From assembly GCA_043819795.1 (NCBI GenBank), contig JBDREN010000155.1, positions 1-55,856 on the forward strand: a DNA stretch of 55,856 bases, written 5' to 3'. The stretch's first letter is position 1, and every line of letters starts with the position of its first letter. Below are positions 29,179 through 48,786 of this stretch, piece after piece. Source of the stretch: Elusimicrobiota bacterium (lineage in GTDB: Bacteria > Elusimicrobiota > Elusimicrobia > UBA1565). The notes under the pieces are model-generated. The model ran no database searches, had not been told where the DNA came from, and saw only the letters and a list, made by a program, of their open reading frames with translations. The position numbers and the translations under genes were made by a program.

Positions 29179-29204
29179 GCGTCGGTCCAGAGGGACCCGT
29201 CCGC

Positions 29205-29840
29205 ATGCGGCAGAACTCGCAGCTGGCCCAGAAGATCGCCGAGGACTTGATCCTCGGAATGGAGCGGTCGAAGACGCCCGTCCCGGTGGGCGTCTCCAAT
29301 AGGCATTTTCACATCACCGAGGAGCACTGGCGCCGGATATTCGGTGAGCGGGAGCCCAAGATGTTCCGCCGGGTGCGGCAGCCGGGCTTCTGGGCGGCCG
29401 AAGATGTGGTGGATATCGAGGGCCCCAAGGGCCGTCTCAGCCGCGTCCGCCTCGTGGCCCCGTACCGGAAGCATACGCAGGTCGAGGTCTCGCGCTCGGA
29501 CGCGGTGACCCTGGGGCTCGAGCCCCCGGTGAGGGGCTCCGGGAGCCTGAAGGGGGCCGCGCCGATCCGGCTCATCGGGCCCAAGGGCTCCGTGGACGTG
29601 CCCGAGGCGCTCGTCATCGCCCAGCGCCACCTCCATTTCACCCCGGCGGAGGCGCGGCAGCTCAAGGTCGGCGACGGCGACAGCATGCGGGTCCGCGCGG
29701 GCGCCGGAGGGCCGCGCGAGCTCGTCTTCGAGAACGTCCTCGCGCGCGTCTCGGACAAGTTCGCGCTCGAGTTCCACGTCGACACGGATGAAGCGAACGC
29801 CGCGTGGCTCAAGACGGGGGATTTCGTACACTTGGTTTGA
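29205..29840 (+). CDS. pduL: Phosphate acyltransferase PduL (BMC-associated)
   Basis: VGVSNRHFH, QPG.WAA, TQVEVS..DA..LG, IAQRHLH, HVDTDEANAA; N-terminal amphipathic encapsulation-peptide-like helix. Confidence 0.93.
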   Translation: MRQNSQLAQKIAEDLILGMERSKTPVPVGVSNRHFHITEEHWRRIFGEREPKMFRRVRQPGFWAAEDVVDIEGPKGRLSRVRLVAPYRKHTQVEVSRSDAVTLGLEPPVRGSGSLKGAAPIRLIGPKGSVDVPEALVIAQRHLHFTPAEARQLKVGDGDSMRVRAGAGGPRELVFENVLARVSDKFALEFHVDTDEANAAWLKTGDFVHLV

Positions 29841-29947
29841 AGGGCGGGGGACAGGAAGGACATTCTTGTGACTGGATGTCGCATGCCGCGAGAGCTGGAA
29901 GGCTAACAGTGCTCTTGTGATGGAGTTTCCGATAACGCAGCGGACTG

Positions 29948-29974
29948 AGCGCCGCAGGGCGAGCCTGCGGCGCT
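29948..29974 (+). repeat. 27-bp REP-like palindrome, copy 3
   Basis: AGCGCCGCAGG-GCGAG-CCTGCGGCGCT. Confidence 0.8.
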
Positions 29975-30007
29975 AGCATGACTCTGAAGTCAGCATAGGG
30001 AGGCTTA

Positions 30008-30307
30008 ATGGAAGCGCTTGGAATGATCGAGACGAGGGGTTTGGTGGCCTGCGTCGAGGCCGCCGATGCCGCGGTCAAGGCGGCCAACGTGCAGATCGTG
30101 GGCTACGAGAAGGTCGGGACCGGCCTGGTGACGGTCCTGTTCCGCGGCGAGGTCGCGGCGTGCCGGGCCAGCTGCGACGCCGGCGGCGCGGCCGCGCAGA
30201 GGGTCGGGGAGCTTATCGCGGTCCACGTCATCCCGCAGCCGCACTCGGACCTCGAGGGCAAGATGCCCATCTCCCTTCCGGAGACCGCGGGCCGGGGCCG
30301 CAAGTAG
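30008..30307 (+). CDS. BMC-H shell hexamer (EutM/PduA-like)
   Basis: [11 protein letters not shown]...[12 protein letters not shown]...GEVAA...HVIPQPH. Confidence 0.95.
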
Positions 30308-30346
30308 GAGCTTCTTCCGTCCGTCCGGACGGGGGCAGGAGGGAGC

Positions 30347-30670
30347 ATGATATTCGCGAGAGTGATCGGGAACGTCGTCTCCACGAACAAGGACGAGAAG
30401 CTCGTCGGCAAGAAGCTTCTGCTGGTCCAGCCCACGGAGCTCGGCTCCGGCGGGGGCGCTAGGGGGAATCCTCTCGTCGCCGTGGACACCGTGGGGGCGG
30501 GGGAAGGGGAGCTGGTCCTGCTGGTGCAGGGGTCTTCGGCCCGGCAGACGGCGCTCACCGAGGGGCATCCGGTCGATTGCGCGATCGCGGCCATCATCGA
30601 CTACGTGGAGAGCGGCGGGACGCTCGTCTTCGAGAAGAGCAAGGACAAGGACTACCCGGCCAGGCGCTGA
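30347..30670 (+). CDS. BMC-P shell pentamer (EutN/CcmL family)
   Basis: ARVIGNVVST.K...KLLLVQ...VAVDTVGAGEGELVL..QGSSAR...DCAI.AIID. Confidence 0.95.
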   Translation: MIFARVIGNVVSTNKDEKLVGKKLLLVQPTELGSGGGARGNPLVAVDTVGAGEGELVLLVQGSSARQTALTEGHPVDCAIAAIIDYVESGGTLVFEKSKDKDYPARR

Positions 30671-30695
30671 ATGCGGCGCGCCGGGCGGGGGCATC

Positions 30696-32153
30696 GTGGA
30701 TAAGAGCGAGATAGCGGGTATCGTCGCCGAGGTCCTCAATCGCCTGGAGGACCGCGCGCCCGGCCTCGGGGCCGTCGCGTCCGCGGCCGGGTCCGCGGCG
30801 CGGGGGGGAGCCTCGGGCGCCGGGGACTTCGTCTATTCGGACCTCGACGCGGCCGTGGCCGCGTGCGCCCGCGCACAGGCCGGGTTCCAGGAAATGGGGC
30901 TCGAGCAGCGCGGGAGGATCATCGACGCGATGCGCAGGGCCGGCATCGACAACGCGGAGCCCCTCGCCCGCATGGCGCGCGACGAGACGGGCATGGGCCG
31001 CTACGAGGACAAGGTCCGGAAGAACCTGCTGGTCTCGACCAAGACTCCGGGCCTCGAGGACCTGCACGCCGAAGCCTACACGGGGGACAAGGGGCTGACG
31101 CTCGTGGAGTACGCCCCCTTCGGCGTGGTCGGCGCCGTGACCCCCTCGACCAACCCGACCTCGACGATCATCAACAACTCGATCTCGATCCTGGCCGGGG
31201 GCAACAGCGTCCTCTTCGCGCCGCATCCGGCCGCCGTCAAGTGCTGCCGCGAGACGATGCGCCTGCTGGGCGAGGCGATCGTAGCGGCCGGCGGGCCGCG
31301 CGGGTTGATCGCGACGGTCGATCCGGCCTCGCAGGAGGGGACGCGGGCGCTCCTGGCCCATCCCGGCGTCCGCTTGAACCTGGTGACCGGGGGGCCGGCG
31401 ATCGTCAAGATCGCGATGACGGTCGGCAAGAGCTGCAAGACGATCGCCGCCGGCCCCGGGAACCCCCCGGTCGTCGTCGATGAGACCGCTCTTCTGCCGA
31501 AGGCGGCCGAGGACATCATCTCGGGCGCGTCCTTCGACAACAACGTCCTGTGCACGGCGGAGAAGGAGGTCATCGTCGTCGAGGCGGCCAAGGCGCGTTT
31601 CCTGGAGGCCATGCGGCGCGACCCGCGCGGCTACGAGCTCAGCCCCTCCCAGATCGACGCGGTCACCAAGCTCGTGATCGTGGAGGGCGGCAAGGGCTGC
31701 AAGGACCCGCGCCTGAACCGGGAGTTCGTGGGCAAGGACGCCGCGGTCATCGCGCGGGGCATCGGGCTCGACGTGCCCGAGCGGACCAGGCTGCTCTGGG
31801 CCGAGGTGCCGCCCGACCACCCCTTCATCTGGGTCGAGCAGCTCATGCCGGTCCTGCCGGTCACCTCGGCCCGGGACGTGGAGTCGGCCGTGGAGTTCGC
31901 CTACGAGGCCGAGGGAGAGAACCACCACACCTCCGCCATGCACTCGATGAACGTGGCGAATTTGACGCTCATGGGGCGGCGCATGGCGTGCTCGATCTAC
32001 GTCAAGAACGCGCCGACCTACTACGGCCTCGGCATGGGAGAGGGCTACGCTTCGGTGTCGATCGGGACGCCGACCGGCGACGGGCTGACGAAGGCGCGCC
32101 ACTTCGTCCGGCCGCTGCAGTGCAGCCTCGTCGGCTACTTCCGCATCGCTTAA
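30696..32153 (+). CDS. CoA-acylating aldehyde dehydrogenase (EutE/PduP-like)
   Basis: ETGMGRYEDK..KN, TPG.EDL, PFGVVGAVTPSTNP, AGPGNPPVVVDETA, SFDNNVLCTAEKE; N-terminal encapsulation-peptide-like helix. Confidence 0.95.
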   Translation: MDKSEIAGIVAEVLNRLEDRAPGLGAVASAAGSAARGGASGAGDFVYSDLDAAVAACARAQAGFQEMGLEQRGRIIDAMRRAGIDNAEPLARMARDETGMGRYEDKVRKNLLVSTKTPGLEDLHAEAYTGDKGLTLVEYAPFGVVGAVTPSTNPTSTIINNSISILAGGNSVLFAPHPAAVKCCRETMRLLGEAIVAAGGPRGLIATVDPASQEGTRALLAHPGVRLNLVTGGPAIVKIAMTVGKSCKTIAAGPGNPPVVVDETALLPKAAEDIISGASFDNNVLCTAEKEVIVVEAAKARFLEAMRRDPRGYELSPSQIDAVTKLVIVEGGKGCKDPRLNREFVGKDAAVIARGIGLDVPERTRLLWAEVPPDHPFIWVEQLMPVLPVTSARDVESAVEFAYEAEGENHHTSAMHSMNVANLTLMGRRMACSIYVKNAPTYYGLGMGEGYASVSIGTPTGDGLTKARHFVRPLQCSLVGYFRIA

Positions 32154-32165
32154 GGAGAGACGAAT

Positions 32166-32717
32166 ATGCAGGCGAACATCGCTATTGGACTCCTGGAGAC
32201 CTCGTCGATCGCGAAAGGGATCGAGGCCTCGGACGCCATGTGCAAGATGGCGGGGGTCGAGCTCGTGAAGGCGGACATCATCGCCCGGGGCAAGTACATG
32301 ATCCTCGTGTCGGGACCGGTGGGGGAGGTCGAGTCCGCCATGAGGGCGGGCGCGCAGACGGCGGACCGGACCGTCGTCCATAGGGTCATCATCCGGAACG
32401 TTCACCAGCACGTTCTCGACGCGCTCGAGAAGCGCAGGACGGTCCCGGAGCTCGACGCGCTCGGCGTCATCGAGACGAAGGACGCGATCGCGGCCGTCCA
32501 CGCGGCCGACAGCGCGGCCAAGGCGGCCAAGGTGCACCTGATCGACGTCCGCGTGGCGATCGGCGGAGGCAAGGGGTACGTCTCGATGACCGGCGACGTG
32601 GGCGCCGTCCGGACGGCCGTCGGCGCGGGCATCGCGGCCGTGCCGGAGGGGATGCTGGTCAGCCGCGTCGTCATCCCCCGGCCCGACCGCCAGCTTTTGA
32701 GGACGATGGGGAAATAA
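32166..32717 (+). CDS. BMC-T tandem-domain shell protein (PduT-like)
   Basis: AIGLLETSSIAKGIEASDAM...GKY; second domain ALGVIET...AADSAAKAA...IGGGKG. Confidence 0.9.
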   Translation: MQANIAIGLLETSSIAKGIEASDAMCKMAGVELVKADIIARGKYMILVSGPVGEVESAMRAGAQTADRTVVHRVIIRNVHQHVLDALEKRRTVPELDALGVIETKDAIAAVHAADSAAKAAKVHLIDVRVAIGGGKGYVSMTGDVGAVRTAVGAGIAAVPEGMLVSRVVIPRPDRQLLRTMGK

Positions 32718-32718
32718 C

Positions 32719-33168
32719 ATGCGAATAGTCATAGGCTCGGACCACGCCGGCTTCGAGGCCAAGGAGAAGCTCAAGAGGTTCCTCCAGGGCCAGGGCCATG
32801 AGGTCGTCGATTTCGGCTGCTACAAGGCGGAGTCGGTGGACTATCCCGACGTGGCGCAGCTCGTCGCCGAGGCGGTCGCGCGGGGCGAGTTCGACCGGGG
32901 CGTGCTCCTCGATGGGTTCGGCGGGGCCGTGGCTCTGGCGGCCAACAAGGTCCGCGGCGCGCGCGCGGTCTGCGCCTACGACAGCGTCAGCGCCCGCTTC
33001 GCGATGGCGCACGAGGACGCGAACGTGCTCTGCCTGGGCGGCAAGACGCACGGCGAGGTGGCGCTCAATGAGATCGCGGGCGTGTTCTTCGGGACCGTGT
33101 TCGAGGGCGGCCGCCACGAGCGCCGTCTGGCCAAGGTCGCGGCCATCGAGGCGCAGTACAAGCGATGA
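32719..33168 (+). CDS. rpiB: Ribose-5-phosphate isomerase B family
   Basis: IGSDHAG, DYPD, ANKVRGARA, HEDANVLCLG, FEGGRHERR. Confidence 0.92.
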   Translation: MRIVIGSDHAGFEAKEKLKRFLQGQGHEVVDFGCYKAESVDYPDVAQLVAEAVARGEFDRGVLLDGFGGAVALAANKVRGARAVCAYDSVSARFAMAHEDANVLCLGGKTHGEVALNEIAGVFFGTVFEGGRHERRLAKVAAIEAQYKR

Positions 33169-33464
33169 AGTACGCGCGGGTCATCGGCCGCGTGACCTGC
33201 TCGCGGCAGTATGAGACTCTGGACGGCAAGAAGCTGCTGCTCATCCAGCCCCTCGGCTGGGAGGACGGCGAGCCGCGCGGCGGCCCGGTCGTCGCGGCCG
33301 ACGCGGTGGGCGCGGGCGCCTCGGAATACGTGTTCTGGGTCGCGGCCCGCGAGGCCGCCGTGGCCTTCCCGGACGTGCCGCCGATCGACGCGGCCATCGT
33401 CGGCATCGTGGAAGGCCGTCAGGTGAGGGATTTTCGGGCGAAAGAACGGCAGAGGAAGGCCTGA
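33165..33464 (+). CDS. BMC-P shell pentamer (EutN/CcmL family)
   Basis: ARVIGRV, KLLLIQP, VAADAVGAG, PIDAAIVGIVE. Confidence 0.92.
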   Translation: MKYARVIGRVTCSRQYETLDGKKLLLIQPLGWEDGEPRGGPVVAADAVGAGASEYVFWVAAREAAVAFPDVPPIDAAIVGIVEGRQVRDFRAKERQRKA

Positions 33465-33558
33465 TGAAGAAGCACGGCCCCCCGACAGAAACCGCCCCCC
33501 GTGGGGGGGCGGTTGACATCCCCCCGAGGGGGGGCGCTGGCAGGAGGACCGCGTAACC

Positions 33559-33855
33559 ATGATCGTGGCGGAGGTGGTGGGCAACGTCTGGGGACAGTAC
33601 AAGCACCCGAGCCTCGACAAGAAGAGGCTTCTCATCGTGCGCCCGATCGATCCCGTTACCGAGAAGCCGCTGGGCGAGCCGCTGATGGCGGTCGACGGCG
33701 GCGTGCAGGCGGGACCGGGGAGCGTCGTTCTGGTCGTGGACGAGGGGGGCTCCGCCCGGCAGATACTGAAGGACGAGAAGGCGCCCGTCCGGACCGTCAT
33801 CTGCGGCGTCATTGACAGCGTCTATATGAGAGGGAGCCACAAACGTTATGCATGA
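33559..33855 (+). CDS. BMC-P shell pentamer (EutN/CcmL family)
   Basis: EVVGNVW..KHP.L...[25 protein letters not shown]. Confidence 0.92.
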
Positions 33856-35002
33856 GCGCGAGTTGAGAGCTGTCGTCGAGACCGTCGTGAAGGTCCTGGC
33901 CGAGATGGGCCTGCTCAAGGAAGAGCGCGGCTGCGCGTCGGCCCCATCGCCGCACCTGCCGCCCACGCCCTTCCCGAGGGCGTCCGGCACGGCGCCCCTG
34001 CCGGGACGCTGCCCGGACAGCTGCCCGGACAGCTGCCCGGACAGGGGAGCCGGCCCCTGCGAGCCGGCGGTGCGGGCCCGCGGCGAGGGGGATGTCCGCG
34101 TGACCACCGGCACGGCGGGCAAAGTATTCGGGCAGGAGTGGACTTTCGGAAGGCCCGCGCCCTCAACAGCCGCCGCGGACGGCGAGCGGGAGCACACGCA
34201 CGGGCCGGATTGCCCCCATTGCTTGGCGCTTTCGAAAGTCGGCCCCAACGAGCTCCGGGCGCTGGGCGCCGACCGCATCGGCGTCTGCCACCCAACGAAG
34301 AACTGCAACGAGATCGCGCCGAGCGTCGATCATACGCTGCTCAAGCCGGGGGCGACGCAGGAGGAGATCGCGAAGCTCTGCGACGAGGCGCGCACGTACT
34401 GCTTCGCCTCCGTGTGCGTGAATCCGGCGTACGTCGCGCTGGCGGCGCGCCTGCTGCGGGGCTCGGGGGTCCTGGTCTGCACCGTGGTCGGCTTCCCGCT
34501 CGGCTCGACGACCCCGACGGTGAAGGCGATCGAGGCCCGCGACGCGATCGCGAACGGCGCCGGCGAGATCGACATGGTCCTCAACGTGGGCGCGCTGAAG
34601 TCGGGCAACGACGCGTTCGTTCGCGACGACATGCGAGCGGTGCGCGACGCCACTCGGGGACGGGTGCTCAAGGTCATCCTCGAGACGGCCCTTCTGACGG
34701 ACGACGAGAAGACGCGGGCCTGCCGGATCGCGAAAGAGGTCGGGGCCGACTTCGTGAAGACCTCGACGGGGTTCGGTCCCGGCGGCGCGACGGTGGAGGA
34801 TATCCGGCTCATGCGCGGGACGGTCGGCCCGCTCATGGGCGTCAAGGCCTCGGGCGGCATCCGGGACGCGGCGATGGCCCAGGCGATGATCGATGCCGGG
34901 GCGACGCGTCTGGGGACTTCGGCGAGCGTGGCGATCGTGACCGATCGCGCGCCCGGCGCGGGGGAGCCTAAGGGGGCGGGCGGCAAGCCCCCGGCGTATT
35001 GA
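33848..35002 (+). CDS. deoC: Deoxyribose-phosphate aldolase with N-terminal encapsulation-peptide-like helix and expanded linker
   Basis: [60 protein letters not shown]. Confidence 0.95.
33948..34044 (+). repeat. 63-bp intragenic repeat (read [19 protein letters not shown]) followed by 3 x 12-bp CTGCCCGGACAG
   Basis: CGCCGCACCTGCCGCCCACGCCCTTCCCGAGGGCGTCCGGCACGGCGCCCCTGCCGGG at 33948-34005; 12-mers at 34009-34044. Confidence 0.88.
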
Positions 35003-35048
35003 GCGTCGTGGCCCGCGGCTATCGGGGCCGCAGGAGGATCGCGGAGGC

Positions 35049-35648
35049 ATGAAGAAGAAGATCAGGGTGAGGATCGATCTCGAGTGCGGCGCCTGCGGGG
35101 CCCTCTTCCACCGCGGAGAGGTCCCGACGGACCCCGGATCGAGCGCCTCGACGGATATGCCGAAGGCGCGGGGCAGAAGCGTCGTCTCCGAGGGGTCCGA
35201 GCGTCGCGGCTCCGTGGGGCCTCTGCGCGCGGGCCACGAGGAGGATGCCAAGGGGTCCGAGCACTCCGGCCTCCAGCCGAATCCCGAGGGGTCCGAGCAC
35301 CTCGGCCCTGGCGGGCCGCCGCACCGCGGCCCCCAGCCGAATCCCGAGGGGTCCGAGCACCGCGGCCCTGGCGGGCCGCCGCACTCCGGCCCCCAGGTGA
35401 ATCCCAAGGGGTCCGAGCACCTCGGCCCTGCCGGGCCGCTGCGGTTCTGCGCGTGCTGCGGCGCGGCCTACGAGCGGTACTGCATCCTGTGCAGGAGGAA
35501 GGTCGGGATGTATTTCGAGGAGTGGTGGCCCGAGGACGACGAATGCGTCCGGACCTACACCTCCGCGAGGCGTTGTCCGACGTGCAACGCGGATCTTGAA
35601 GGAGGGCCCCGGGATGGGCCCCTCAACGGATCCGCTTACGAGCATTAG
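35049..35648 (+). CDS. Double zinc-ribbon protein interrupted by tandem repeats
   Basis: CGAC, CACC, CILC, CPTC pairs; SD GGAGG; 60-bp repeats between first and second pair. Confidence 0.7.
   Translation: MKKKIRVRIDLECGACGALFHRGEVPTDPGSSASTDMPKARGRSVVSEGSERRGSVGPLRAGHEEDAKGSEHSGLQPNPEGSEHLGPGGPPHRGPQPNPEGSEHRGPGGPPHSGPQVNPKGSEHLGPAGPLRFCACCGAAYERYCILCRRKVGMYFEEWWPEDDECVRTYTSARRCPTCNADLEGGPRDGPLNGSAYEH
35248..35440 (+). repeat. 60-bp tandem repeat (QPNPEGSEH.GPGGPPH.GP)
   Basis: ATCCCGAGGGGTCCGAGCAC recurs at 35281, 35341 and (variant) 35401. Confidence 0.9.
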
Positions 35649-35675
35649 GATTTTCCGGAAAAGGAGAAGACAACG

Positions 35676-35975
35676 ATGGCTGAGATCAAGGAAGCGCTGG
35701 GGTTGGTCGAGACGAAGGGGTTCGTCGGCATGATCGAGGCGACCGACGCCATGGCCAAAGCCGCCAAGGTGCGCATGCTCGGCTACGAACGGATCGGCGC
35801 CGGGCTCGTCACGACGCTGTGTCGCGGCGAAGTCGGCGCGGTCCGGGCGGGGGTGGAAGCGGGGGCCGCGGCCGCCCAGCGGGTCGGGGAGCTCGTCTCG
35901 GTCCACGTCATCCCGCGGCCGCACGGCGATCTCGAGAAGTACCTCGACAAGATCGCGATCAAGACCGGGGGCTGA
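35676..35975 (+). CDS. BMC-H shell hexamer
   Basis: [10 protein letters not shown]...[10 protein letters not shown]...GEVGAVRA...HVIPRPH. Confidence 0.95.
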
Positions 35976-36159: not shown

Positions 36160-36447
36160 ATGTTCACGCGCAGCGACTTCATCGACGCAGTCCTCAGGCA
36201 CGTTGGCACCCCCGCGGGCGGTGGCCCGCGCGGCGGAACGTCCGCCCCGGGCGGGCGACCGCGGGCGTCTGACGGGACCCGCCTCCCCCCTCTCAAGGGC
36301 CGCCGGTTTCTGACGGATGACGAGGCTAGAAAGGCGTTGACTCCCGGGGCGCAACTCCTTACAATACCTGGAGACGCGATTGTCAGTCCTCTGGCGCTCG
36401 AATGGCTGGCGCTGGAGGGGATACGGGTCGTGCGTTCATCCTCCTGA
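36160..36447 (+). CDS. Small BMC-locus accessory protein
   Basis: FLTDDE...LTIPGDAIVSPLALEWL...GIRVV resembles the short ITPLA.D-type domain seen in metabolosome accessory proteins. Confidence 0.6.
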   Translation: MFTRSDFIDAVLRHVGTPAGGGPRGGTSAPGGRPRASDGTRLPPLKGRRFLTDDEARKALTPGAQLLTIPGDAIVSPLALEWLALEGIRVVRSSS

Positions 36448-36529: not shown

Positions 36530-37618
36530 ATGGCGACGGACCTGACCAAGCTGCTGAAGCTGATGGTCGAGAAGGGCATATCGGACATCCATTTCAAGGC
36601 GGATGCCTACCCGGCCGTGCGGATCCACGGCAAGCTCGTCCCCGCGGTGAACCTCAAGAAGATGTCCGCGGTCGACATCAATAAGGTGGCCGAAGGCATC
36701 ATGAGCGCGGAGCAGGCCAAGCAGTTCTCGAGCGTCGACGAGATGGACCTGGCCTACAGCCTGCCGGGGCTCTCCCGGTTCCGCGTCAACGTGTTCCGCC
36801 AGCGCGGTTCGGTCGCCCTCAGCCTGCGCGTCGTCCCGATCAAGCTGCGCAGCTTCGAGGAGCTGAACCTGCCGGTGGAGTCGATGAGGAAGCTCGCCGG
36901 GGAGTCGCGAGGCCTGATCCTTTTCGCGGGCATCACGGGCGCCGGGAAGTCGACGTCGATGAACAGCTTCGTCAACCACATCAACGAACGGGAGAGCTGC
37001 CGCATCATCACCGTCGAGGATCCGATCGAGTTCTTCCATCCGGACATCAAGGGGTCCGTCGTCCAGCGGGAGGTGGGGCGGGACACGCGCTCGTTCGCCG
37101 CGGCGCTTAAGCACGTCCTGCGGCAGGACCCGGACGTGATCGTCATCGGGGAGATGCGCGACATAGAGACCATGCAGGCCGCGCTCACCGCCGCCGAGAC
37201 GGGGCACTTGGTCCTCTCGACGCTCCACACGCTGGACGCCGTCCAGACCATCGACCGTATCGTCGACAGCTTCTCTTCGCACCAGGCGTCCCAGGTCCGC
37301 CAGCAGCTCGCGCTGGTGCTCAAGGGGGTCGTGGCCCAGCGCCTGGTCGCCGGCAAGGACGGGTGCGGGCGCTACCCCGCGACCGAGACCCTCGTCGTCA
37401 ATGGTCTCGTGCGGCGTCACATACTGGAGGCGAAGAACAGCGAGATCTACAAGACGATGGAGGCCGGCACCTACTACGGGATGCACACCTTCGACCAGGA
37501 CCTGCTTCGGCTGGTGAAGGAAGGGAAGATCGACGAGAAAGAGGCTTTGGAGAACGCGACGAACACCGACGATATCGCGCTCAAGATGCGCGGCGTGGGA
37601 GGCGTGAGAGAGCAATGA
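36530..37618 (+). CDS. PilT/PilU-family type IV pilus ATPase
   Basis: SDIHF, RFRVNVFRQRG, GITGAGKST, ITVEDPIEF, LRQDPDVIVIGEMRD, AETGHLVLSTLHT, GMHTFDQ; SD GGAGG. Confidence 0.95.
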   Translation: MATDLTKLLKLMVEKGISDIHFKADAYPAVRIHGKLVPAVNLKKMSAVDINKVAEGIMSAEQAKQFSSVDEMDLAYSLPGLSRFRVNVFRQRGSVALSLRVVPIKLRSFEELNLPVESMRKLAGESRGLILFAGITGAGKSTSMNSFVNHINERESCRIITVEDPIEFFHPDIKGSVVQREVGRDTRSFAAALKHVLRQDPDVIVIGEMRDIETMQAALTAAETGHLVLSTLHTLDAVQTIDRIVDSFSSHQASQVRQQLALVLKGVVAQRLVAGKDGCGRYPATETLVVNGLVRRHILEAKNSEIYKTMEAGTYYGMHTFDQDLLRLVKEGKIDEKEALENATNTDDIALKMRGVGGVREQ

Positions 37619-38805
37619 CGGACGAGCGTCCGGGCGAGGGAGTGCAGGATGGCGACATCCAAGAGACCCTCATCGACCTGGACAACATCCTGCAGACCCT
37701 GACCGGTCCGGTCGAAGGAGCCGGGATCGTCGAGGGAGGCGTTCCCCCCGCGGAAGCGGAGGCGGCTCCGAGCGCCGTCGAAGCCGGGCCGCGGGCGGCC
37801 CACCCGCAGGAGCAGGTCCCGCCTCCCGCCGCGGAGAAGCCGGTCGAGATCCCCAAGGCGGAAGTGTCGCCTCCGGCGGAAGAGAAGCCGGTCGAAGTCC
37901 CCAGGGCGGAGCTCGCGCCGCCCGCTGAGCCGGAGCCGGTCGAAGGCGCGAGACCTTCCGAGCAGCCCAAGCCGGAAGAGCAAACGGCCCCCGGGATCGA
38001 ATTGGCTCCTCGCGCGGGCGTCATTCCCGTCGTCAAGAAGAAGCAGGAGGAAAAGAAGCCTCCCGTGAAGAAAAGGGGCCTTTCGGATACGGGATCGTTC
38101 GAGATCACAGTCGACGGCGTGCCGGTCCAGCCCGAACGGAAGAAGGAGCCTACTCCTCCGGAGCCGGCCCCGGCGCCCCATCCGGAGATCGAGCTGGCGC
38201 CGAGAGCCGGAATGCTCAAGCCTGTTGAAAAGGAGACCGCGGAGAAGAAGCCTTCCGAAAAGAAGGGGCTTCCGGAGACGGTCCAGAAGGAAGCGAGTCC
38301 GGAAGGAGCCCAGGCCAAGGCTCCGGAGCCGGCCGCTGCCGCTCCTGAACCGGCGGCTGTCGCGCCGGCTGCGCCCGCGAAGAAAGGGCCGCGGGGCGTC
38401 TCGACCGATCCGGAGCCCATCCCGGATAAGACCCCCGCCGAGCAGATCCGCAGGATCGCCTTCCTGTACGACCCCGGGCACGAGACTGTCTATGTGAAGT
38501 TCTCCCAGTTCCTCTCCGAAGTCGCCGCGAAGGTATCGAAGAAGCCTCTCTACCTCCACAAGGCCGTAGTGGCCGGGCTCACACGGGCGATGGACACGCA
38601 GGAGCTCCTCGGGCACTTCAAGAAGACGGGCGCCGTGGGCGTGTTTCTCCTCGTGGAAGGCGTGAACAAGGCCCAGATCCTGGATATCGAGAAGACCTGC
38701 GAGGACGAAGACATCTTCTTCGCACAGATCGCCCCCGAGGAGGTCGACAAGCGCACCAGGGCCATCGATCTCGTGGTGGACCTGATGCTGATGAAAGCGG
38801 GATGA
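37615..38805 (+). CDS. Hypothetical protein: Pro/Glu-rich disordered region plus C-terminal alpha/beta domain
   Basis: ATGA overlap with upstream stop; duplicated IELAPRAG motif; globular ~120-aa C-terminus. Confidence 0.75.
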   Translation: MTDERPGEGVQDGDIQETLIDLDNILQTLTGPVEGAGIVEGGVPPAEAEAAPSAVEAGPRAAHPQEQVPPPAAEKPVEIPKAEVSPPAEEKPVEVPRAELAPPAEPEPVEGARPSEQPKPEEQTAPGIELAPRAGVIPVVKKKQEEKKPPVKKRGLSDTGSFEITVDGVPVQPERKKEPTPPEPAPAPHPEIELAPRAGMLKPVEKETAEKKPSEKKGLPETVQKEASPEGAQAKAPEPAAAAPEPAAVAPAAPAKKGPRGVSTDPEPIPDKTPAEQIRRIAFLYDPGHETVYVKFSQFLSEVAAKVSKKPLYLHKAVVAGLTRAMDTQELLGHFKKTGAVGVFLLVEGVNKAQILDIEKTCEDEDIFFAQIAPEEVDKRTRAIDLVVDLMLMKAG

Positions 38806-40754
38806 CGATGTTGACGCGTTGGCGGATCGAGAAGTCTCCGACCGATAAGGATCCCCATCGACAGATCCTCCTGCTGAAGGGCTCACTCTCGGACGTGCGC
38901 GCCTTGATCCGCAGGCTGGGCGCGATGTGCGGCCGGCCCAAGAAGGAAAAGGGCGATCCCGATTTCAACTTCCGTCTCTACCTGCACGGCCTGAACGCGG
39001 AGGCGCTGGCCGACGTCGAAGCGCAGCTTCGCTCGCTGGCCGAGGGGGCCCCCGCTCCGACGACGCCGGCCGCGGCCGGGCCGGGCGAGGCGTCGGCTGA
39101 AGCGCCGGCTCGGGCGGTTCCCGAGGACGGCCGGCACCGCGCTCCTGCCGGGGTCGATGCCGCTCCTCTCCCTGAGCCTCCCAAAGAAGACGCGCCTTCC
39201 GCGTCACAAGCGCCGGAGAGCGGGGGCGAGGCTCCCGCCGGGCCCGGCCCCGAAACCGCTCCGGAGCCGGCCGGCCCGGCCGAAGCCGGGGCGGCGGCGT
39301 CCGCCGAAGAGGCGCAGGATTCCCCTGATTTCGTGGACCTGTCTGAGGAGGGAGCGGAGCAGGTTGAGGGCGTCTCGACGGGGGCTCAATCGTCCGGCAT
39401 CAGCCTCCATATGCCGTCCGAAGGCGCCGCGGCCGCGCCGGTCGCGCAGCCGGCGGCGGAGCCCGCTGTCGGGACGGCGGGGCAGGCGGCCGGATCCGAG
39501 GCCCCGGGGCTGGAGCGGCTCGCGGCCGCTCCGCTCTGCGGGGGCGTGGCGCCCGCGGACGATGCGTTCACGATGGAAACCCTCATGGTGGGCCCCTTTA
39601 ACCGTTTCGCCCACGCCGCCGCCATGTCGGTCCTCACCAGCCCGGGGACTCTCTACAATCCCATGTTCTTCTTCGGGGGCTCCGGCTCCGGGAAGAGCCA
39701 TTTGCTGCATGCCCTGGCCCAGAAGCTTCAAGAGCAGGCGGGCGACCAGCCGGTCTGGGTCACGTCCGGGGCGCGTCTGGCGCGCGCCGTGGCGCTGGCG
39801 GTCTCCTCAGGCAAGCTGGGCGAGCTCGAGGAGTTCGCTGGCAAGTCCAAGGCCCTGCTCGTCGACGACGTCCACCTGCTGGGCGTCGGAGAAGAGAACC
39901 GCGAGGCGTTGGCCAGGATATTCAAGACCTTTTTCGACGCCTCGATCCAAGTGGTGCTGAGCTCGGCCTATTCGGCCCGGATGCTGGGAGGGCTCGAAGA
40001 GGCGCTCGAGTTCCGGCTCGCTGCCGGGCATGTCGTGGAGCTGAAGCAGCCTCGAGAGGAGCTGCAGAAGGATATCGCCGCGCAGACGCTTCAAAGCCGG
40101 GGAGTGGCCGCCGATCCCGCCGAGCGGGACCTGTTCGCCGACCGCATCCTCCAGGATTTCCCGGGGCTCGAATCCTGCATCCGGCGCCTGCTGGCTCTAC
40201 GGAAGCTGCGCTCGGACGCCGGCCAAGGGGCGGCCGTCAGGGACCTGCTCCCGGTCCTGTTCGCCCCGGATGCCGGCGAGCCGGTGCGGACGCCGCCGGA
40301 GGAGCTGAAGTCCGCGTTGGCGTCTGCCGCGGCCTCCGCTCCGCCGGCCGACGGCGACCGGGACACGGCCCTGCTCTTCCCCGAGGGAGAAGAGACGCAT
40401 GCCGAATGGATCTGGCGCCAGCTGCACGAGAGCGCCCGGCAGAACGGCTGGCCGTTCCCGTTCCGGCGTGCCGTCCGCATGGCCTTCAGCCTCGAGCAGG
40501 CCGCCGCCGCTCCTTTCCTCGTGGCCGAGGAGTGCATCCGCGCGGGCGTCGCGGCGGCGCTGGTCCTCGGCCCGCCCCCGGGCAGCGACCTGGCGGGACA
40601 CGAGAGCGAGTTCCGCTACGTCGCCGAGCACCTCCTTCGGGACGGGCCGGTCGCGCTCGGCTGGATCCCGTTCAACCGCGTTAAGGACCCGAAGTACTCC
40701 GTCCTGGCCTATCTCGACATGATCGCGGGCGCGCCGGGAGGGGGCGAGCGGTGA
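38802..40754 (+). CDS. DnaA-like AAA+ ATPase domain protein lacking the DNA-binding domain
   Basis: FTMETLMVGPFNRFAHAAA...YNPMFFFGGSGSGKSHLLHA, Walker B LLVDDVH; C-terminus is not DnaA domain IV. Confidence 0.85.
   Translation: MTMLTRWRIEKSPTDKDPHRQILLLKGSLSDVRALIRRLGAMCGRPKKEKGDPDFNFRLYLHGLNAEALADVEAQLRSLAEGAPAPTTPAAAGPGEASAEAPARAVPEDGRHRAPAGVDAAPLPEPPKEDAPSASQAPESGGEAPAGPGPETAPEPAGPAEAGAAASAEEAQDSPDFVDLSEEGAEQVEGVSTGAQSSGISLHMPSEGAAAAPVAQPAAEPAVGTAGQAAGSEAPGLERLAAAPLCGGVAPADDAFTMETLMVGPFNRFAHAAAMSVLTSPGTLYNPMFFFGGSGSGKSHLLHALAQKLQEQAGDQPVWVTSGARLARAVALAVSSGKLGELEEFAGKSKALLVDDVHLLGVGEENREALARIFKTFFDASIQVVLSSAYSARMLGGLEEALEFRLAAGHVVELKQPREELQKDIAAQTLQSRGVAADPAERDLFADRILQDFPGLESCIRRLLALRKLRSDAGQGAAVRDLLPVLFAPDAGEPVRTPPEELKSALASAAASAPPADGDRDTALLFPEGEETHAEWIWRQLHESARQNGWPFPFRRAVRMAFSLEQAAAAPFLVAEECIRAGVAAALVLGPPPGSDLAGHESEFRYVAEHLLRDGPVALGWIPFNRVKDPKYSVLAYLDMIAGAPGGGER
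39118..39167 (+). repeat. 63-bp intragenic repeat, partial diverged copy (read [16 protein letters not shown])
   Basis: TTCCCGAGGACGGCCGGCACCGCGCTCCTGCCGGGGTCGATGCCGCTCCT. Confidence 0.8.
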
Positions 40755-40761
40755 GCCTCCC

Positions 40762-42795
40762 ATGACGCCCGAGTGGATCGGCCTGACGCTCTCCTCGGCC
40801 GCCGCCATCGTCGGCATCTTCTGGTATCTGAAGTTCCGGCGCGTCCTCCCGCTCGAGCAGGCGCTGGCGCGCGAGCGCGGCCGCGCCGCCCAGCGGGACG
40901 CGCTCGCCCAGGAGCTGCTCGAGGCGCGCTCCCTGCCGGGCACGCCGCAGGCGTTCTCGGAGGCTCTCCAGTCCGGCGTGGACCGCTTCTTAAAACGGTC
41001 CGGGGGGCTGCACGTGTTCGTCTGGGTGAGGATGTCCGCGACGGGCTCGTTCCCGGAGGTCCAGGGGGACCTGGTCTGCCGGACCGGCGTGCTCCAGTCC
41101 GTGGAGCCGGATGATCTTCGCATCCCCGACGAGTTCTGGGACCGCGCCTTCGGCGCTCCGGGCCAGGCGCGATGGAACGGGGACCTGCCCGCGGCTCTCG
41201 GCCGTCTGTTCGAGCCTCACGGGCTGCGCTCCCTGCGTCTGGTCCCGTGGGGAACGCCGGGCCGGGTATGGGGGCTGTTGGGCGCGCTCGACTCCACGCC
41301 GGGGGGGGCGGTATTGTCGCGTTTCGGCGAGGAGCTGAGCATCCTGACCGCGTCCTTCGGGTCCTTGGCGGACCATACCGGCCAGTTCTGGGAGCTCGAC
41401 CACGCGCGCGAGCAGCTGGAGGGAGGCCTCAGCGTCACGATGCGGCGGCTCGACGAGACGAACCTGCGGCTCATCCAGCGCGCCAGGCAGATCAAGACGC
41501 TGAAGGAAGTCACGGAGGTGATCACGGAGCATCCGGATCAGCCGGACATCCTGAGCGCGATCGTTTCGATCGTCGCGAGGGCTCTCGAGGCGGACCTATG
41601 CGCGTTCCTCCTTCTCGACGAGTCGGGCGGCGAGCTCGTGACCCAGCCCGGCGCCTTCGGGTTCTCGGTGGACGAGGGAGCGCTCTACCGCATCTCTTTG
41701 AACAACGACGACGCATCCTCGGTCCGCGTGTTCCGCAGCGGAGAGCCGTTTTTGACCGGCGACGCGCAGAGCGACCCGCGGGTGATCGCCCGCTACGCCA
41801 AGCTTTGGAAGTGCCACTCCCTGATGGTGGTCCCCCTCCGCGTCGAGGGGGGGCGCATCGGCGTGATGCGCGTCGGGAGCTTCAAAAAGAACTTTTTCAA
41901 CCAGGATCACCTCCAGCTGGTGCGGCTGATCGCGGAGGAGGCCGCGGTGATCGTCGAGAGCGCCGTCCTCTCGAAACAGCTCGCCGAGATGAACCGCCAG
42001 CTGACCCAGCTGCATCGCCTCAAGGACGATTTCGTCTCGACCGTCAGCCACGAGTTCAAGACTCCGCTGACCTCGATACAAGGATTCCTTTCGGTCGTCC
42101 TCGGCGAGGAGGCCGGGCCGCTGACCGTCGAGCAGAAGCGGTTCCTGGCGATCACGAAGGCGGCCTCCGACCGCCTCAGCCTGCTCGTCAACGACATGCT
42201 GGATCTCTCGAAGCTGGAGGCCGGCGTCAAGATCGAGCTCGAGCCGACCGAGCTCGAGGCGGTCGCCAAGAAGGCGATCGAGAACCAGCGCTGGCAGGCC
42301 GAGGAGCGCGGCATCCGGATATCCGTCGATTCCCCCGGCGGGCTGCCGCGGGTCCGGGGAAACGAGCAGTGGCTCACGCAGGTCTTCGACAACCTGATCT
42401 CCAACGCCGTCAAGTTCACTCCCGAGCGGGGCCGGGTGACTGTCTCGATCGTCAACAAGGGGGAGTGCCTCATGGCGGGCGTCGCCGATTCCGGGATCGG
42501 GATCCCGGAGCGGGACCGGCGGCGCATCTTCGAGAAGTTCTTCCGGGCCTCGAACAGGGGAGCCGTCTCGGCGCCGGGGACCGGCCTGGGCCTGGCGATC
42601 TGCAAGCAGATCATCGACCGGCACGCGGGGCGGATCTGGTTCGAGTCGGACGAGGGGGAGGGCACCCGCTTCTTCTTCGTCATACCGGTGGCGCGGGAGG
42701 GATCGGCCGTCGCGTCCAAGCAGCGGGAATTTCTGGCGTCGGCGCGGCCCCAAGAGGCTTCGCCGCGAGAGGGGAGCGGGAAGGAGGGATCATGA
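40762..42795 (+). CDS. Membrane-anchored GAF-domain sensor histidine kinase
   Basis: N-terminal TM; GAF (SLMVVPL...IGVM); H-box VSHEFKTPLTSI; N-box NLISNAVKFT; G boxes DSGIGI, GTGLGLAI. Confidence 0.93.
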   Translation: MTPEWIGLTLSSAAAIVGIFWYLKFRRVLPLEQALARERGRAAQRDALAQELLEARSLPGTPQAFSEALQSGVDRFLKRSGGLHVFVWVRMSATGSFPEVQGDLVCRTGVLQSVEPDDLRIPDEFWDRAFGAPGQARWNGDLPAALGRLFEPHGLRSLRLVPWGTPGRVWGLLGALDSTPGGAVLSRFGEELSILTASFGSLADHTGQFWELDHAREQLEGGLSVTMRRLDETNLRLIQRARQIKTLKEVTEVITEHPDQPDILSAIVSIVARALEADLCAFLLLDESGGELVTQPGAFGFSVDEGALYRISLNNDDASSVRVFRSGEPFLTGDAQSDPRVIARYAKLWKCHSLMVVPLRVEGGRIGVMRVGSFKKNFFNQDHLQLVRLIAEEAAVIVESAVLSKQLAEMNRQLTQLHRLKDDFVSTVSHEFKTPLTSIQGFLSVVLGEEAGPLTVEQKRFLAITKAASDRLSLLVNDMLDLSKLEAGVKIELEPTELEAVAKKAIENQRWQAEERGIRISVDSPGGLPRVRGNEQWLTQVFDNLISNAVKFTPERGRVTVSIVNKGECLMAGVADSGIGIPERDRRRIFEKFFRASNRGAVSAPGTGLGLAICKQIIDRHAGRIWFESDEGEGTRFFFVIPVAREGSAVASKQREFLASARPQEASPREGSGKEGS

Positions 42796-43251: not shown

Positions 43252-44385
43252 ATGCGCCGCGTCCTGCTGCTGCTTCTGGCCGGGGCCCTGGCCTCGGCCT
43301 GGGCGGGCTGCTCCGGCGGGCGGCTCAAGGTCGGGGCCACCAAGGACGGGGAGGTCGTGGAGGCGGAGGGCTGGGCTCCGATCGACGAAAACGACCCCCT
43401 GGGAACGAAGAAGCGCTCGCTGGTCGAGGCTCAAAAAAAGGCCGTCGAGCGGGTCGTGGGCGTGTTCATCTCCGCCAAGACCCGCGTCTCCGAGGCCGTC
43501 ACGGTGGACCAGAACATCCTCGCCAACGTGGAGGGGTACCTCAAGAAATACGAGGTCTTGTCGGAGCGGGAGGAGGAAGGCTTCCATAAGACGAGGATAC
43601 GCGCGCTGGTCCTCTACAAGAAGGTCGGCGAGGATCTCAAGTCCCTCGGTCTCATGCGTCCCCAGCCCCCGCCCGGCAACCCCAAGGTGGTCGTGCTGAT
43701 CGCCACCCACGGCGAATGGTCGGAGAGCAAGGAGGGCCAGGCCTCGGGAGCCGTCCGGCGCAGCCTTCTGGAGCGCGGGTTCCGGGTCGTCGACCGCAAC
43801 GACACGATGCGGTTCGGCGGACGCAAGAGCACCGACACGGCGACGGCGATGGAGGTGGGCCAGGACCTGCGGGCCGACCTCGTGGTGAAAGGGGAGGCCC
43901 AGGCGTATCCGCTGCGCGACGTGCGTCTCGGCGGGTTCCACTCCTATCGCGCGCGCGTGGCGCTCGAGGTGCTCAAGCCGCGGACGGCCGAGGTCCTCAC
44001 CCGTAAGGTGGTCGAGGCCTCGGCCCTGGACCCGGCCCCGGAGATCGCGGAAGCGAAGGCCCTCGAGAACGCCGGGATGCTGGCCGGCGAGGCCCTGGCC
44101 TCCGAGCTCAGCGAGCTCCTCGCCGAACAAGTCAGCATCACCCTGCGCGTGCTCGGGCTGAAGGGGCTGGCCGAGGTCCAGCGCTTGTCGGAGTCTTTGA
44201 GGCTTCAGCCGGATATCGTGTCGGTGACGCTCTCGGATTTCCGCAAGGCCGGGGCCGAGCTGACGGTTACGACGGAGGGCTTGGCGGGCGACGAGCTGGC
44301 CGCGCTGCTCTTGAGGATGAAGAAGTACTCGCTCCGGATCCGGGCGGTCACGCCGTATGTGGTGGAGGTCGGTGTCGGGGAATGA
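43252..44385 (+). CDS. Lipoprotein with FlgT N-terminal-like and CsgG-like middle domains
   Basis: WAG|C lipobox; VEAEG.A...A.KKAVE.VVGVFI...; LLERGFRVVD; ADLVVKG. Confidence 0.7.
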   Translation: MRRVLLLLLAGALASAWAGCSGGRLKVGATKDGEVVEAEGWAPIDENDPLGTKKRSLVEAQKKAVERVVGVFISAKTRVSEAVTVDQNILANVEGYLKKYEVLSEREEEGFHKTRIRALVLYKKVGEDLKSLGLMRPQPPPGNPKVVVLIATHGEWSESKEGQASGAVRRSLLERGFRVVDRNDTMRFGGRKSTDTATAMEVGQDLRADLVVKGEAQAYPLRDVRLGGFHSYRARVALEVLKPRTAEVLTRKVVEASALDPAPEIAEAKALENAGMLAGEALASELSELLAEQVSITLRVLGLKGLAEVQRLSESLRLQPDIVSVTLSDFRKAGAELTVTTEGLAGDELAALLLRMKKYSLRIRAVTPYVVEVGVGE

Positions 44386-44413: not shown

Positions 44414-45118
44414 ATGTCGGGGGGGCGGATTCGCCGCTGGCCGTTCGCCCCCGCGTCGGATGCCCGCGGGGCGAGGGGGCGGGCTTCCTGTCGCCGCCGT
44501 CGGCCGTTCGCGCCCGCGGCGTTCTTTTCCGCCGTCCTTCTGGCGGCGGGGTGCGCGGGGCCGTCGGTGGTCCGCTACGAAGCCCCCGATCTGCCGGCGC
44601 GCCTGCCGGCGGGGGTCGCGGTGCTCCCGTTCGGCAACGAGACGGTGAGCATGCGCGGCCCGGAGCTTCTGCGAAAGATGGTGTCCGAGCGCGTCTCGGC
44701 GTTCGGCTACCGCTCGCCCGGGCTCGAGGAGGTGGACCGGCTGCTCAGGGAGATCGGCATCACGGACGGCGGCCAGCTGGGCGCCGTCGCTCCGGATAAG
44801 GTCGGCCGGACGCTGGGCGTAGACGGGCTCCTCTACGGCAACGTGGAGGATTTCGTCTACCAGAACGTCGGATTCTTCCGCCGCCAGCTCGTTCGTCTGC
44901 GGCTGAAGCTGGTGGACGCGGCATCCGGCGAGCGGCTGTGGGAGGGCGTGGGCGCGGGGGAGGATGGCCAGTTGGTCGTGAATTCGAAGGACGCGGGGAG
45001 GTCTTTCATCGAAGGGATGGTCGAGCAGGCGGCGGAGAAGGCGGCGGGGACGCCCCTCCGGCGCGAGTCGCAGGGCGCCGTGGATGAGCTTTTCAAAAAA
45101 TTCCCCAGGAGGTTCTAA
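44414..45118 (+). CDS. Lipoprotein, DUF799/CsgG-like fold
   Basis: AAG|C lipobox; VAVLPFGN, LGVDGLLYGNV, LVDAASGERLW; start uncertain. Confidence 0.75.
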   Translation: MSGGRIRRWPFAPASDARGARGRASCRRRRPFAPAAFFSAVLLAAGCAGPSVVRYEAPDLPARLPAGVAVLPFGNETVSMRGPELLRKMVSERVSAFGYRSPGLEEVDRLLREIGITDGGQLGAVAPDKVGRTLGVDGLLYGNVEDFVYQNVGFFRRQLVRLRLKLVDAASGERLWEGVGAGEDGQLVVNSKDAGRSFIEGMVEQAAEKAAGTPLRRESQGAVDELFKKFPRRF

Positions 45119-45120
45119 GC

Positions 45121-46074
45121 ATGACAAGCATGAGAATGAAGGCGGTTTTCGGCCTGGCGGCCGCGGCCGCGCTGGCGGGCGCCTGCGCGCCCCGGACCAC
45201 GGTCAAGCGCAAGCAGGCCATCAGCGCGTACGAGACCGAGAAGGTCGAGTCGAAGTACGTCGGGCCCAAGCGCCGGATCGGCGTCGTCGAATTCGAGAAC
45301 AAATCCGCGTACGGCCAGGCGCGCCTGGGGACCGCTGTGTCCGACATCCTGATCACCGAGCTGGCCAAGAGCGGCCGGTTCGTGGTGGTGGAGCGCGACA
45401 AGCTCAATAAGGTCCTCGACGAGCAGAAGCTCCAGGCCTCCGGGGCCATCGACGCGCGCACGGCCGTCGAGGTCGGGAAGATCCTGGGCCTGAACGCGAT
45501 CGTGACGGGCGCGGTGTCCCAGTTCGGAGTGAAGACCGAGGGCAGCGAATACGGAGTGGTGCAGTCCAAGCGTCAGACCGCCGAGGCGGTCGTGGACATA
45601 CGCCTCGTGGACGTGGAGACCGGCCAGGTCCTCTACGCGGACTCGGGCAAGGGTGAGGCCCGGAGCTCGAAAGGGACCTTCCTGGGCCTCCTCGGGACCA
45701 AAGGGGGCTACGACGAGACGATCGAGGGCAAGGCCCTTCGGGCGTCCATAGCCCAGTTCACCGAGAACATCGTCAGTCAAGTCAACAGGAAGCCGTGGTC
45801 CTGCCGCATCGCGGCGGTCCGCGGGGAGCTCGTCTACCTCAACGCGGGCCCGACGATGGGCGTCGAGAAGGGACTCAAGCTCGACTGCTTCCACCTGGGC
45901 AAGGAGATCCTCGACCCCACGACGGGCCTCATGCTCGGCCACGAAGAGGTGCCCATCGGCAGGGTGCGGGTCACGGGGCCGCTCGGGGACTCGGGTGAGG
46001 GCTCGATCGCGGCCCTGATCGACTCGGAAGGGACGCCTCCCTCGCCCAAAGACATCTGCCGGCTGGCCGACTGA
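45121..46074 (+). CDS. CsgG/HfaB family lipoprotein with FlgT C-terminal-like domain
   Basis: AGA|C lipobox; IGVVEFEN, SGRFVVVER, VDIRLVDVETG; C-terminal VYLNAG...EILDPTTG..LG. Confidence 0.85.
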   Translation: MTSMRMKAVFGLAAAAALAGACAPRTTVKRKQAISAYETEKVESKYVGPKRRIGVVEFENKSAYGQARLGTAVSDILITELAKSGRFVVVERDKLNKVLDEQKLQASGAIDARTAVEVGKILGLNAIVTGAVSQFGVKTEGSEYGVVQSKRQTAEAVVDIRLVDVETGQVLYADSGKGEARSSKGTFLGLLGTKGGYDETIEGKALRASIAQFTENIVSQVNRKPWSCRIAAVRGELVYLNAGPTMGVEKGLKLDCFHLGKEILDPTTGLMLGHEEVPIGRVRVTGPLGDSGEGSIAALIDSEGTPPSPKDICRLAD

Positions 46075-48584: not shown

Positions 48585-48786
48585 GGTGTCTCATGACAAT
48601 CATAGCCCGCGAGCCTCCGAATGCGGTCAAGACGGGCTCAACTTTACCTCAACTCAGCGATGGGCGAGCGGCCGGAGATCCCGCCGAAGACCGAAGCACC
48701 TTCTCCACGATAGGCCGAAAGACGAGGGGAAAATGGGCCGTTGGGCCTAAGCAGGGACCGCCGGACCGTTGCTATACTTGAGGCCC

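Follow-up and report, generated by a model that had tools for sequence, protein, structure and literature searches.

What a DnaA-type ATPase does between a pilus motor gene and a histidine kinase gene is the question raised by contig JBDREN010000155.1 of an Elusimicrobiota bacterium (assembly GCA_043819795.1), analysed here as one stretch of 55,856 nucleotides (the window). Four genes on the forward strand, pilT, a helper gene, the DnaA-like gene (named dnaL here, its product DnaL) and a GAF histidine kinase gene, form a coupled chain, with ATGA overlaps at 37615 (pilT/helper) and 38802 (helper/dnaL) and a 7-nt gap between dnaL and the kinase gene, just as an earlier sequence-only reading had described (Table 1). 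That reading confined the unit to 36530..42795; however, the transcription unit extends past 42795, with an ATGA overlap joining the kinase gene to lipoprotein gene L1 and four lipoprotein genes running on to 46074. We put at roughly 45% the probability that this is a conserved operon in which DnaL would be a nucleotide-dependent hub, gathering PilT and the GAF kinase for pilus-linked signalling of surface or contact; every interaction in this model is drawn from gene order and layout. The source genome is labelled G000 and its contigs are C-numbered, the window being C155; other G-numbers are genomes, f-numbers the Elusimicrobiota families sampled, three-digit L-numbers loci, and P-numbers proteins.

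DnaL carries the ATPase of DnaA. PF00308 covers its residues 254-412 (E = 1.5e-29), and its modelled AAA+ fold reaches Z scores of 22-24 against DnaA structures, while the whole-family models leave it below their cut-offs, at 131 bits for DnaA (cut-off 344) and 53 bits for Hda (cut-off 195). A genome-wide search with the domain IV family PF08299 matched C138, C152 and C72 and nothing on C155, which bears out the earlier description of a DnaA domain III lacking domain IV; the DnaL model has an alpha/beta domain in that place. Its N-domain gave an hhalign probability of 0.2% to DnaA domain I. A separate canonical dnaA, which the sequence-only reading had wished to see confirmed, occurs twice elsewhere in the genome, at G000:C138:43499-44851, with dnaN following, and at G000:C152:3792-4979; DnaL never adjoins dnaN in the loci read. 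In the tree, one branch with 100% SH-aLRT support separates all 109 DnaL rows from 59 DnaA rows; this was a quick, unrooted search with long-branch warnings, rows matching fewer than 170 positions were excluded, and the DnaA rows were limited to those of G000 and the matches of one homolog search. The two canonical dnaA genes cluster together there, and the C152 copy leaves its contig inside domain IV. The label 'chromosomal replication initiator DnaA', which public records attach to many DnaL proteins, is a misannotation. The full-length model (pTM 0.69, 142 disordered residues) hints that the three DnaL domains may pack against each other. P0139 and P0140 represent a separate family, in which domain IV is missing and DnaA-type AAA+ domains come as a tandem pair.

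Residue conservation divides DnaL into an ancestral type and the clade of the window. The sensor I and sensor II positions carry what we take to be their usual names. These were compared only with an excerpt of an account of Hda (PMC5397184); the roles of essential residues in B. subtilis DnaA follow part of another (PMC6669920), and the residues were placed by spacing onto the C138 DnaA, with three divergent rows dropped. In ancestral-type DnaL (n = 49), Walker B, both sensors and the equivalents of H231, R264, L269 and G317 are invariant, those of R202, F218 and R321 are kept in 47/49, that of I190 in 48/49 and that of R206 in 36/49. The equivalent of K222, which binds single-stranded DNA, is replaced in 49/49 (canonical DnaA has lysine in 38/50). 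Mutual identity is 68% among ancestral-type copies and 58% in the canonical DnaA sample. With these residues kept and K222 gone, the prediction for ancestral DnaL is an ATPase that is active and self-assembles but leaves DNA unmelted. In the window clade (n = 43), the Walker A lysine and the first Walker B aspartate persist in 43/43, R321 in 36/43 and R264 in 12/43; sensor I, sensor II and the remaining interface residues are lost. Window DnaL itself has alanine at sensor I, proline at sensor II, glutamate at R202, glycine at R206, leucine at F218, alanine at I190 and glycine at K222, and retains arginine at the R264 and R321 positions only. Given the loss of sensors and interface and the retention of Walker A and B, the ATPase of this clade has likely decayed to a nucleotide-binding scaffold. 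Set beside DnaA, DnaL has the common AAA+ fold and, in all copies, Walker A and B, to which ancestral ones add the sensors, the arginine finger and the filament residues; it lacks domains I and IV and K222, and has extra N- and MID-like domains.

The main rival to the hub reading is that DnaL is a replication regulator, co-assembling with DnaA as a filament cap or through an Hda-like arginine finger and so coupling initiation to the state of the kinase and pilus. In ancestral copies the interface between DnaA subunits is preserved in full, with 50% identity to the DnaA of the genome itself; in small genomes of gut type DnaL persists on its own (88/88 of f10); and, like Hda, it is a DnaA paralog without domain IV. 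Unlike Hda, it has two added domains and is nearer in sequence to DnaA, and the Hda-type clamp-binding motif was found by a strict pattern in none of 105 DnaL proteins and by a loose one in a single protein. The arginine finger position, a feature of Hda, holds arginine in the window and in 49/49 ancestral proteins but in only 12/43 of the window clade, which is also without sensors I and II. The absence of dnaN beside dnaL and the failure to find DnaL in 89/89 genomes of f18 likewise speak against a role in replication, which we consider unlikely.

DnaL occurs in most of the Elusimicrobiota genomes sampled and is all but confined to the phylum. With two profiles combined, its C-terminal domain (domain C) was found in 193/301 Elusimicrobiota genomes and 28/34 families: the window-type profile accounts for 138 genomes (f1, f2, f3, f10, f16) and the ancestral profile for 55 more. 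It was not found in f18, as noted above, nor in the few genomes of f6, f7, f8, f11 and f26. A scan of the genome collection with window DnaL alone returned no relative, whereas an alignment-based scan of 185,579 species with ancestral patterns gave 55 loci, of which 53 are labelled Elusimicrobia or Endomicrobia, one is unclassified and one lies in an Ignavibacteria bin. Named homologs are from Elusimicrobiota, and in the cultured Elusimicrobium minutum the ortholog (P0334) is 1097 aa long. Genome G102 has two DnaL copies (L069, L088). The module usually has tpiA, rpiB or deoC upstream, a fixed position that suggests an old core locus and not a mobile island.

Neighbours were counted in 104 distinct loci, a non-random set picked for its spread, with loci that have sufficient flank as denominators: the kinase gene follows dnaL in 63/98, the helper gene precedes it in 56/80 and pilT in 48/80, and lipoprotein genes follow in 31/89. 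Kinase, helper and PilT are common beside DnaL, which can nevertheless do without them. In both halves of the phylum the order pilT-helper-dnaL-kinase has been maintained, with its tight junctions, despite a rearranged upstream block, so the conservation of gene order in relatives that the earlier reading had looked for is there. These counts bear on a second rival, in which the module serves an outer-envelope complex of the lipoproteins L1-L4 (CsgG-like secretion or attachment) and DnaL is its cytoplasmic organiser. In f10, DnaL has no partners left but L1 and L2, the unit in the window runs into L1 through an ATGA overlap, and lipoprotein genes are present at the distant locus L087; against this, the follow-on figure is low, with just one ancestral-type locus among them, and other CsgG-like genes exist in the genome. 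We regard the lipoprotein explanation as improbable.

Among the other partners, the operon PilT is a distinct paralog, one of six family members in the genome. It scores above the PilT/PilU family cut-off and has intact Walker A and B, Asp and His boxes, as a PilT/PilU should; it departs from that family in lying outside any pilus assembly cluster and in its C-terminal AIRNLIRE helix, described as highly conserved in PilT in the part of the source available (10.1101/2021.10.23.465551), which is diverged in window PilT and in 50 operon copies and near canonical in the C140 paralog. The pilT, helper and kinase genes of the module each form dedicated clades. The kinase is intact in its motifs: H, N, G1 and G2 boxes are present, and the 63 orthologs keep the phospho-accepting histidine in 60, the N-box in 63 and the G1 aspartate in 62. 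By eye it has a likely N-terminal membrane anchor, and ancestral copies have three GAF domains. At L085, L155 and L079 the operon kinases have the phospho-accepting histidine replaced. A cognate-looking single-domain receiver gene directly follows the kinase gene in 8 distinct loci, all of one lineage, and any receiver occurs in 13/112 loci, duplicates included. The genome has 150 receiver-domain matches and none on C155, in keeping with the earlier statement that the window holds no response regulator. As a cognate receiver in G000, C49:23975-24397 was the best match to the lineage-specific receiver, just 9 bits over the next, and is not named as such. A PilZ gene stands upstream in 9 loci (duplicates included), and a GGDEF gene with an N-domain in some others.

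The helper and DnaL end in related domains, B and C respectively. BLASTP of the two C-termini detected nothing (E = 5.6), while hhalign gave 84.8% with profiles of close relatives and 98.5%, then 99.1%, with distant ones; the best comparison (77 B rows, 114 C rows) reached 99.1% with E = 1e-18, and a reversed profile 2%. In a search of a protein atlas, B and C both retrieve the same unnamed Elusimicrobiota cluster first, and the model of B (pLDDT 91.5) matches residues 520-642 of the DnaL model in four strands and four helices. B and C are thus paralogous, as had been suspected by eye from the sequence. When B was compared with 48,161 solved chains, MID domains of Argonaute/PIWI proteins took all of the first 15 places (Z 10.1-12.5, rmsd 2.9-4.2, 5-14% identity over 112-123 residues), and domain C matches the same Piwi MID range at Z 11.1. 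The first non-MID match of B is the receiver-like domain of CpaE (Z 10.0), and in Foldseek lumazine synthase ranked level with Argonaute MID. Predicted B and C have the four-stranded parallel Rossmann-like alpha/beta order of MID; they differ in their C-terminal position, the absence of PIWI and PAZ, and apparently in their pocket.

Sequence gives this likeness a weak signal. Comparison by hhalign with 13 prokaryotic MIDs gave 14% (E = 0.002), above receiver (1-2%) and reversed controls; in a PDB sequence search human Ago2 MID came at E = 0.11, below designed alpha/beta proteins; and descent from an Argonaute MID is unproven. No consistent Pfam family emerged among 67 members of the MID-like domain, and there was no significant PDB sequence match. 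The 5'-phosphate pocket of MID comprises a tyrosine and two invariant lysines in the available part of one account (PMC2897117). The aromatic residue and one lysine belong to helix 3, the second lysine to helix 4. At the presumed pocket positions, assigned from secondary structure and not by superposition, 92/94 domains have a hydrophobic residue in helix 3 and Asp or Glu in helix 4; the pocket aromatic is kept in 50/58 C domains, with no lysine at +4. With the pocket lysines apparently replaced, the models suggest domains that are MID-like in shape and whose ligand is probably not that of MID.

The earlier reading had raised a receiver-like fold for these C-termini. The folds are related, both being doubly wound, yet B and C are MID/flavodoxin-like, with four strands and no conserved acidic pocket after strands 1 and 3; the place of the phospho-aspartate after strand 3 is Gly-Pro in 53-54/58 C domains and variable in 36 B domains. 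As phosphorylatable receivers, therefore, B and C were rejected. Outside the operon, L096:9137-9898 (G021) encodes a lone 253-aa protein that joins a C-type MID-like domain to a hydrophobic N-terminus. L097 (G330:C6) holds the gene of a short prokaryotic Argonaute, a rarity in the phylum, which overlaps the gene of its partner.

The MID likeness is what would recommend a third rival, in which these domains sense nucleic-acid ends or nucleotides (e.g., pilus-imported DNA) and trigger ATPase and kinase in uptake or defence. The structural ranking and the prokaryotic MID profile signal lean that way, as does a basic conserved patch in ancestral domain C. The residues at the presumed lysine positions lean the other way, as do the lack of PIWI domain PF02171 in G000 (it occurs in 2/301 phylum genomes), a PADLOC run on the locus that gave generic ATPase and kinase matches only and none specific, and a locus fixed among housekeeping genes. 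Nucleic-acid sensing is, on these grounds, distinctly improbable.

DnaL begins with the N-domain, as do many distant helpers and some of the GGDEF proteins encoded nearby. It has no Pfam match and no PDB sequence match, and no profile match to DnaA domain I, PilT, PilB or the lipoproteins; full-length DnaL structural searches were filled by ATPase matches, so that its fold is a prediction of the full-length model. At L163:2389-3822, L164:1238-2683 and L171:2186-3610 the GGDEF genes upstream of pilT begin with it (E 1e-10 to 3e-7), and the DnaL of L131 carries two. Since distant helpers share the N-domain with DnaL, the two proteins are paralogs on one plan of N-domain, linker and MID-like domain, into which the AAA+ module was inserted in DnaL. 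Co-loss of N-domain and pilT (adjoining in 0/9 loci without any N-domain) was rejected as binding evidence, since the same PilT clade is present at other sites in f5 genomes.

The window helper itself matches neither Pfam nor NCBIfam. A profile of its short helix, trained on these same linkers, detected it in the last round in 48/74 helper linkers, 0/79 DnaL linkers and 0 shuffled or reversed linkers. A genome-wide set of proteins carrying the helix was rejected, as only the helper scores. Receiver-PilB-like ATPases at L199 (G000:C192:4466-6292) and L200-L219 start with a conserved short acidic helix that resembles the helper's by eye in about 10/25 loci and to which the helper profile gives no score. 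Tandem helper genes occur in five loci (L083, L148, L153, L170, L181). The layout recalls PopZ of Caulobacter, which, in the part of the account available (PMC9926476), combines a helix, a disordered linker rich in proline and acidic residues and an assembly domain, with clients that include kinases and pilus proteins. The helper has a short conserved helix, a Pro/acid-rich linker and a folded C-terminus; unlike that of PopZ, its C-terminus is MID-like alpha/beta and not a helical bundle.

Put together, the hub would work as follows. Like DnaA, ancestral DnaL would use ATP to self-assemble, with protein partners taking the place of the origin, and window-clade DnaL would act as a static scaffold. 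The helper would be a disordered adaptor resembling PopZ, with clients docking on its short helix and its MID-like domain; N-domains and MID-like domains would bind proteins and would not read nucleic acid. DnaL and helper would thus collect the PilT paralog and the kinase, and the kinase would signal the hub's state to a single-domain receiver, with c-di-GMP proteins also taking output in places. A bolder version, in which the ATPase of DnaA has turned into a switch that polymerises without DNA and forms the centre of a phylum-wide pilus/two-component hub, with docking by the MID fold and one clade reduced to a pseudo-enzyme scaffold, is somewhat less probable and we hold it tentatively.

In favour of the hub speak the two canonical dnaA genes elsewhere, the branch that parts DnaL from DnaA, the interface residues kept in ancestral copies that have all lost K222, the neighbour counts, the receiver gene that adjoins the kinase gene in one lineage, the PilZ and GGDEF genes upstream in some loci, the PopZ-like layout of the helper and the fixed place behind tpiA, rpiB and deoC. 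Several findings weigh against the hub. DnaL is kept in all genomes of f10 and in 22/22 of f16, and the operon PilT clade was not found there at a threshold of E = 1e-105, the best paralogs in G108 and G124 being 41-45% identical; the f10 loci are also without helper and kinase. The wiring to pilus retraction that the sequence-only reading proposed is accordingly not obligatory, and the core job of DnaL may not involve these partners. Conversely, f8 genomes (3/3) have the PilT paralog and no DnaL was found in them. Because PilT-family genes are found almost throughout the phylum (245/301 genomes), co-occurrence with pili says little, and co-location could reflect an old operon. By its motifs the operon PilT is different from the canonical-motif PilT of the genome, the likeness of helper to PopZ is one of layout only, with no sequence link, and the residues predict an ATPase that is catalytically intact only in ancestral-type copies. 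Hence, of the 'repurposed initiator-type AAA+ switch' proposed earlier, the conserved DnaA-derived module stands, and the switch itself would apply to ancestral-type copies and not to the window clade. The remaining rival, that these are long-standing neighbours in a housekeeping super-operon with no common function and only helper and DnaL a true pair, draws on the independent loss of partners and on tpiA, rpiB and deoC being nearby about as often, and is very improbable against the persistent order, the tight junctions and the dedicated clades.

Table 1. Features of the dnaL transcription unit, in window coordinates.
Feature	Position	Strand	Remarks
PilT/PilU-family ATPase	36530..37618	+	TIGR01420, 425 bits (cut-off 319); catalytic motifs intact
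Helper, 396 aa	37615..38805	+	Short helix, 234-residue Pro/Ala/Glu/Lys-rich linker, MID-like domain
Helper acidic amphipathic helix, residues 15-29, likely binding motif	37657..37701	+	Conserved among helper linkers
MID-like domain B of helper, residues 278-396	38446..38802	+	Model pLDDT 91.5; structural matches
DnaL, 650 aa	38802..40754	+	N-domain, disordered linker, DnaA-type AAA+, MID-like domain replacing domain IV
DnaL N-domain, ~80 aa, unnamed	38808..39041	+	Model beta-beta-alpha-beta-alpha, pLDDT >90
DnaA domain III-type AAA+ module of DnaL	39549..40271	+	Z 23.6 to Aquifex DnaA; residue comparison in text
Walker A of DnaL	39675-39698	+	Retained
Walker B of DnaL	39855-39869	+	Retained
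MID-like domain C of DnaL, residues 520-643	40359..40730	+	Paralog of domain B by hhalign
GAF histidine kinase, 677 aa	40762..42795	+	Pfam GAF, HisKA, HATPase_c; His430 phospho-acceptor at 42049
Lipoprotein L1	42792..43250	+	Lipobox; hhalign 92% to L2; resembles L2 N-part
Lipoprotein L2, weakly LipL46/FlgT-like	43252..44385	+	
Lipoprotein L3, GNA1162-like, start uncertain	44414..45118	+	
Lipoprotein L4, CsgG-family	45121..46074	+	PF03783, E = 5e-35

Upstream of this unit, a promoter scan gave a single sigma-70-like site at 36337-36365, against 0.5 expected, which is not significant. Positions 28372-35975 hold a bacterial microcompartment cluster (shell genes, PduL, aldehyde dehydrogenase and a DeoC with an N-terminal extension), its genes interleaved with tpiA, rpiB and deoC; in distant relatives these three stand alone upstream of pilT. 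Further downstream on the forward strand, 48769-50685 encodes a repeated N-terminal segment followed by a nucleotidyltransferase-like domain, and 52177-55554 a long thrombospondin-type-3/PKD repeat protein.

On the features tested, the DnaL module is outside the DnaA, Hda, Argonaute and receiver families. No description of it was found in the open-licence literature of PMC and bioRxiv (subscription journals were not covered), and no described system appears to have this set of parts, whose function we infer from sequence. To our knowledge, the known paralogs of the DnaA family (Hda, helicase loaders, IstB) all act on DNA machinery. If the bolder version of the hub is true, DnaL would be a first case of a DnaA descendant with a job other than replication control, and its companion domains would give a view of the role of the MID fold without PIWI, that fold having so far been tied to Argonautes. 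DnaL also offers a natural experiment separating the DnaA residues needed for oligomerisation from those needed for DNA melting: a DnaA copy kept in most of the families sampled appears to have lost DNA reading while its self-assembly residues stayed strongly constrained. For the Elusimicrobiota, the module, with its predicted pair of MID-fold domains outside Argonautes, may offer a handle on their surface lifestyle.

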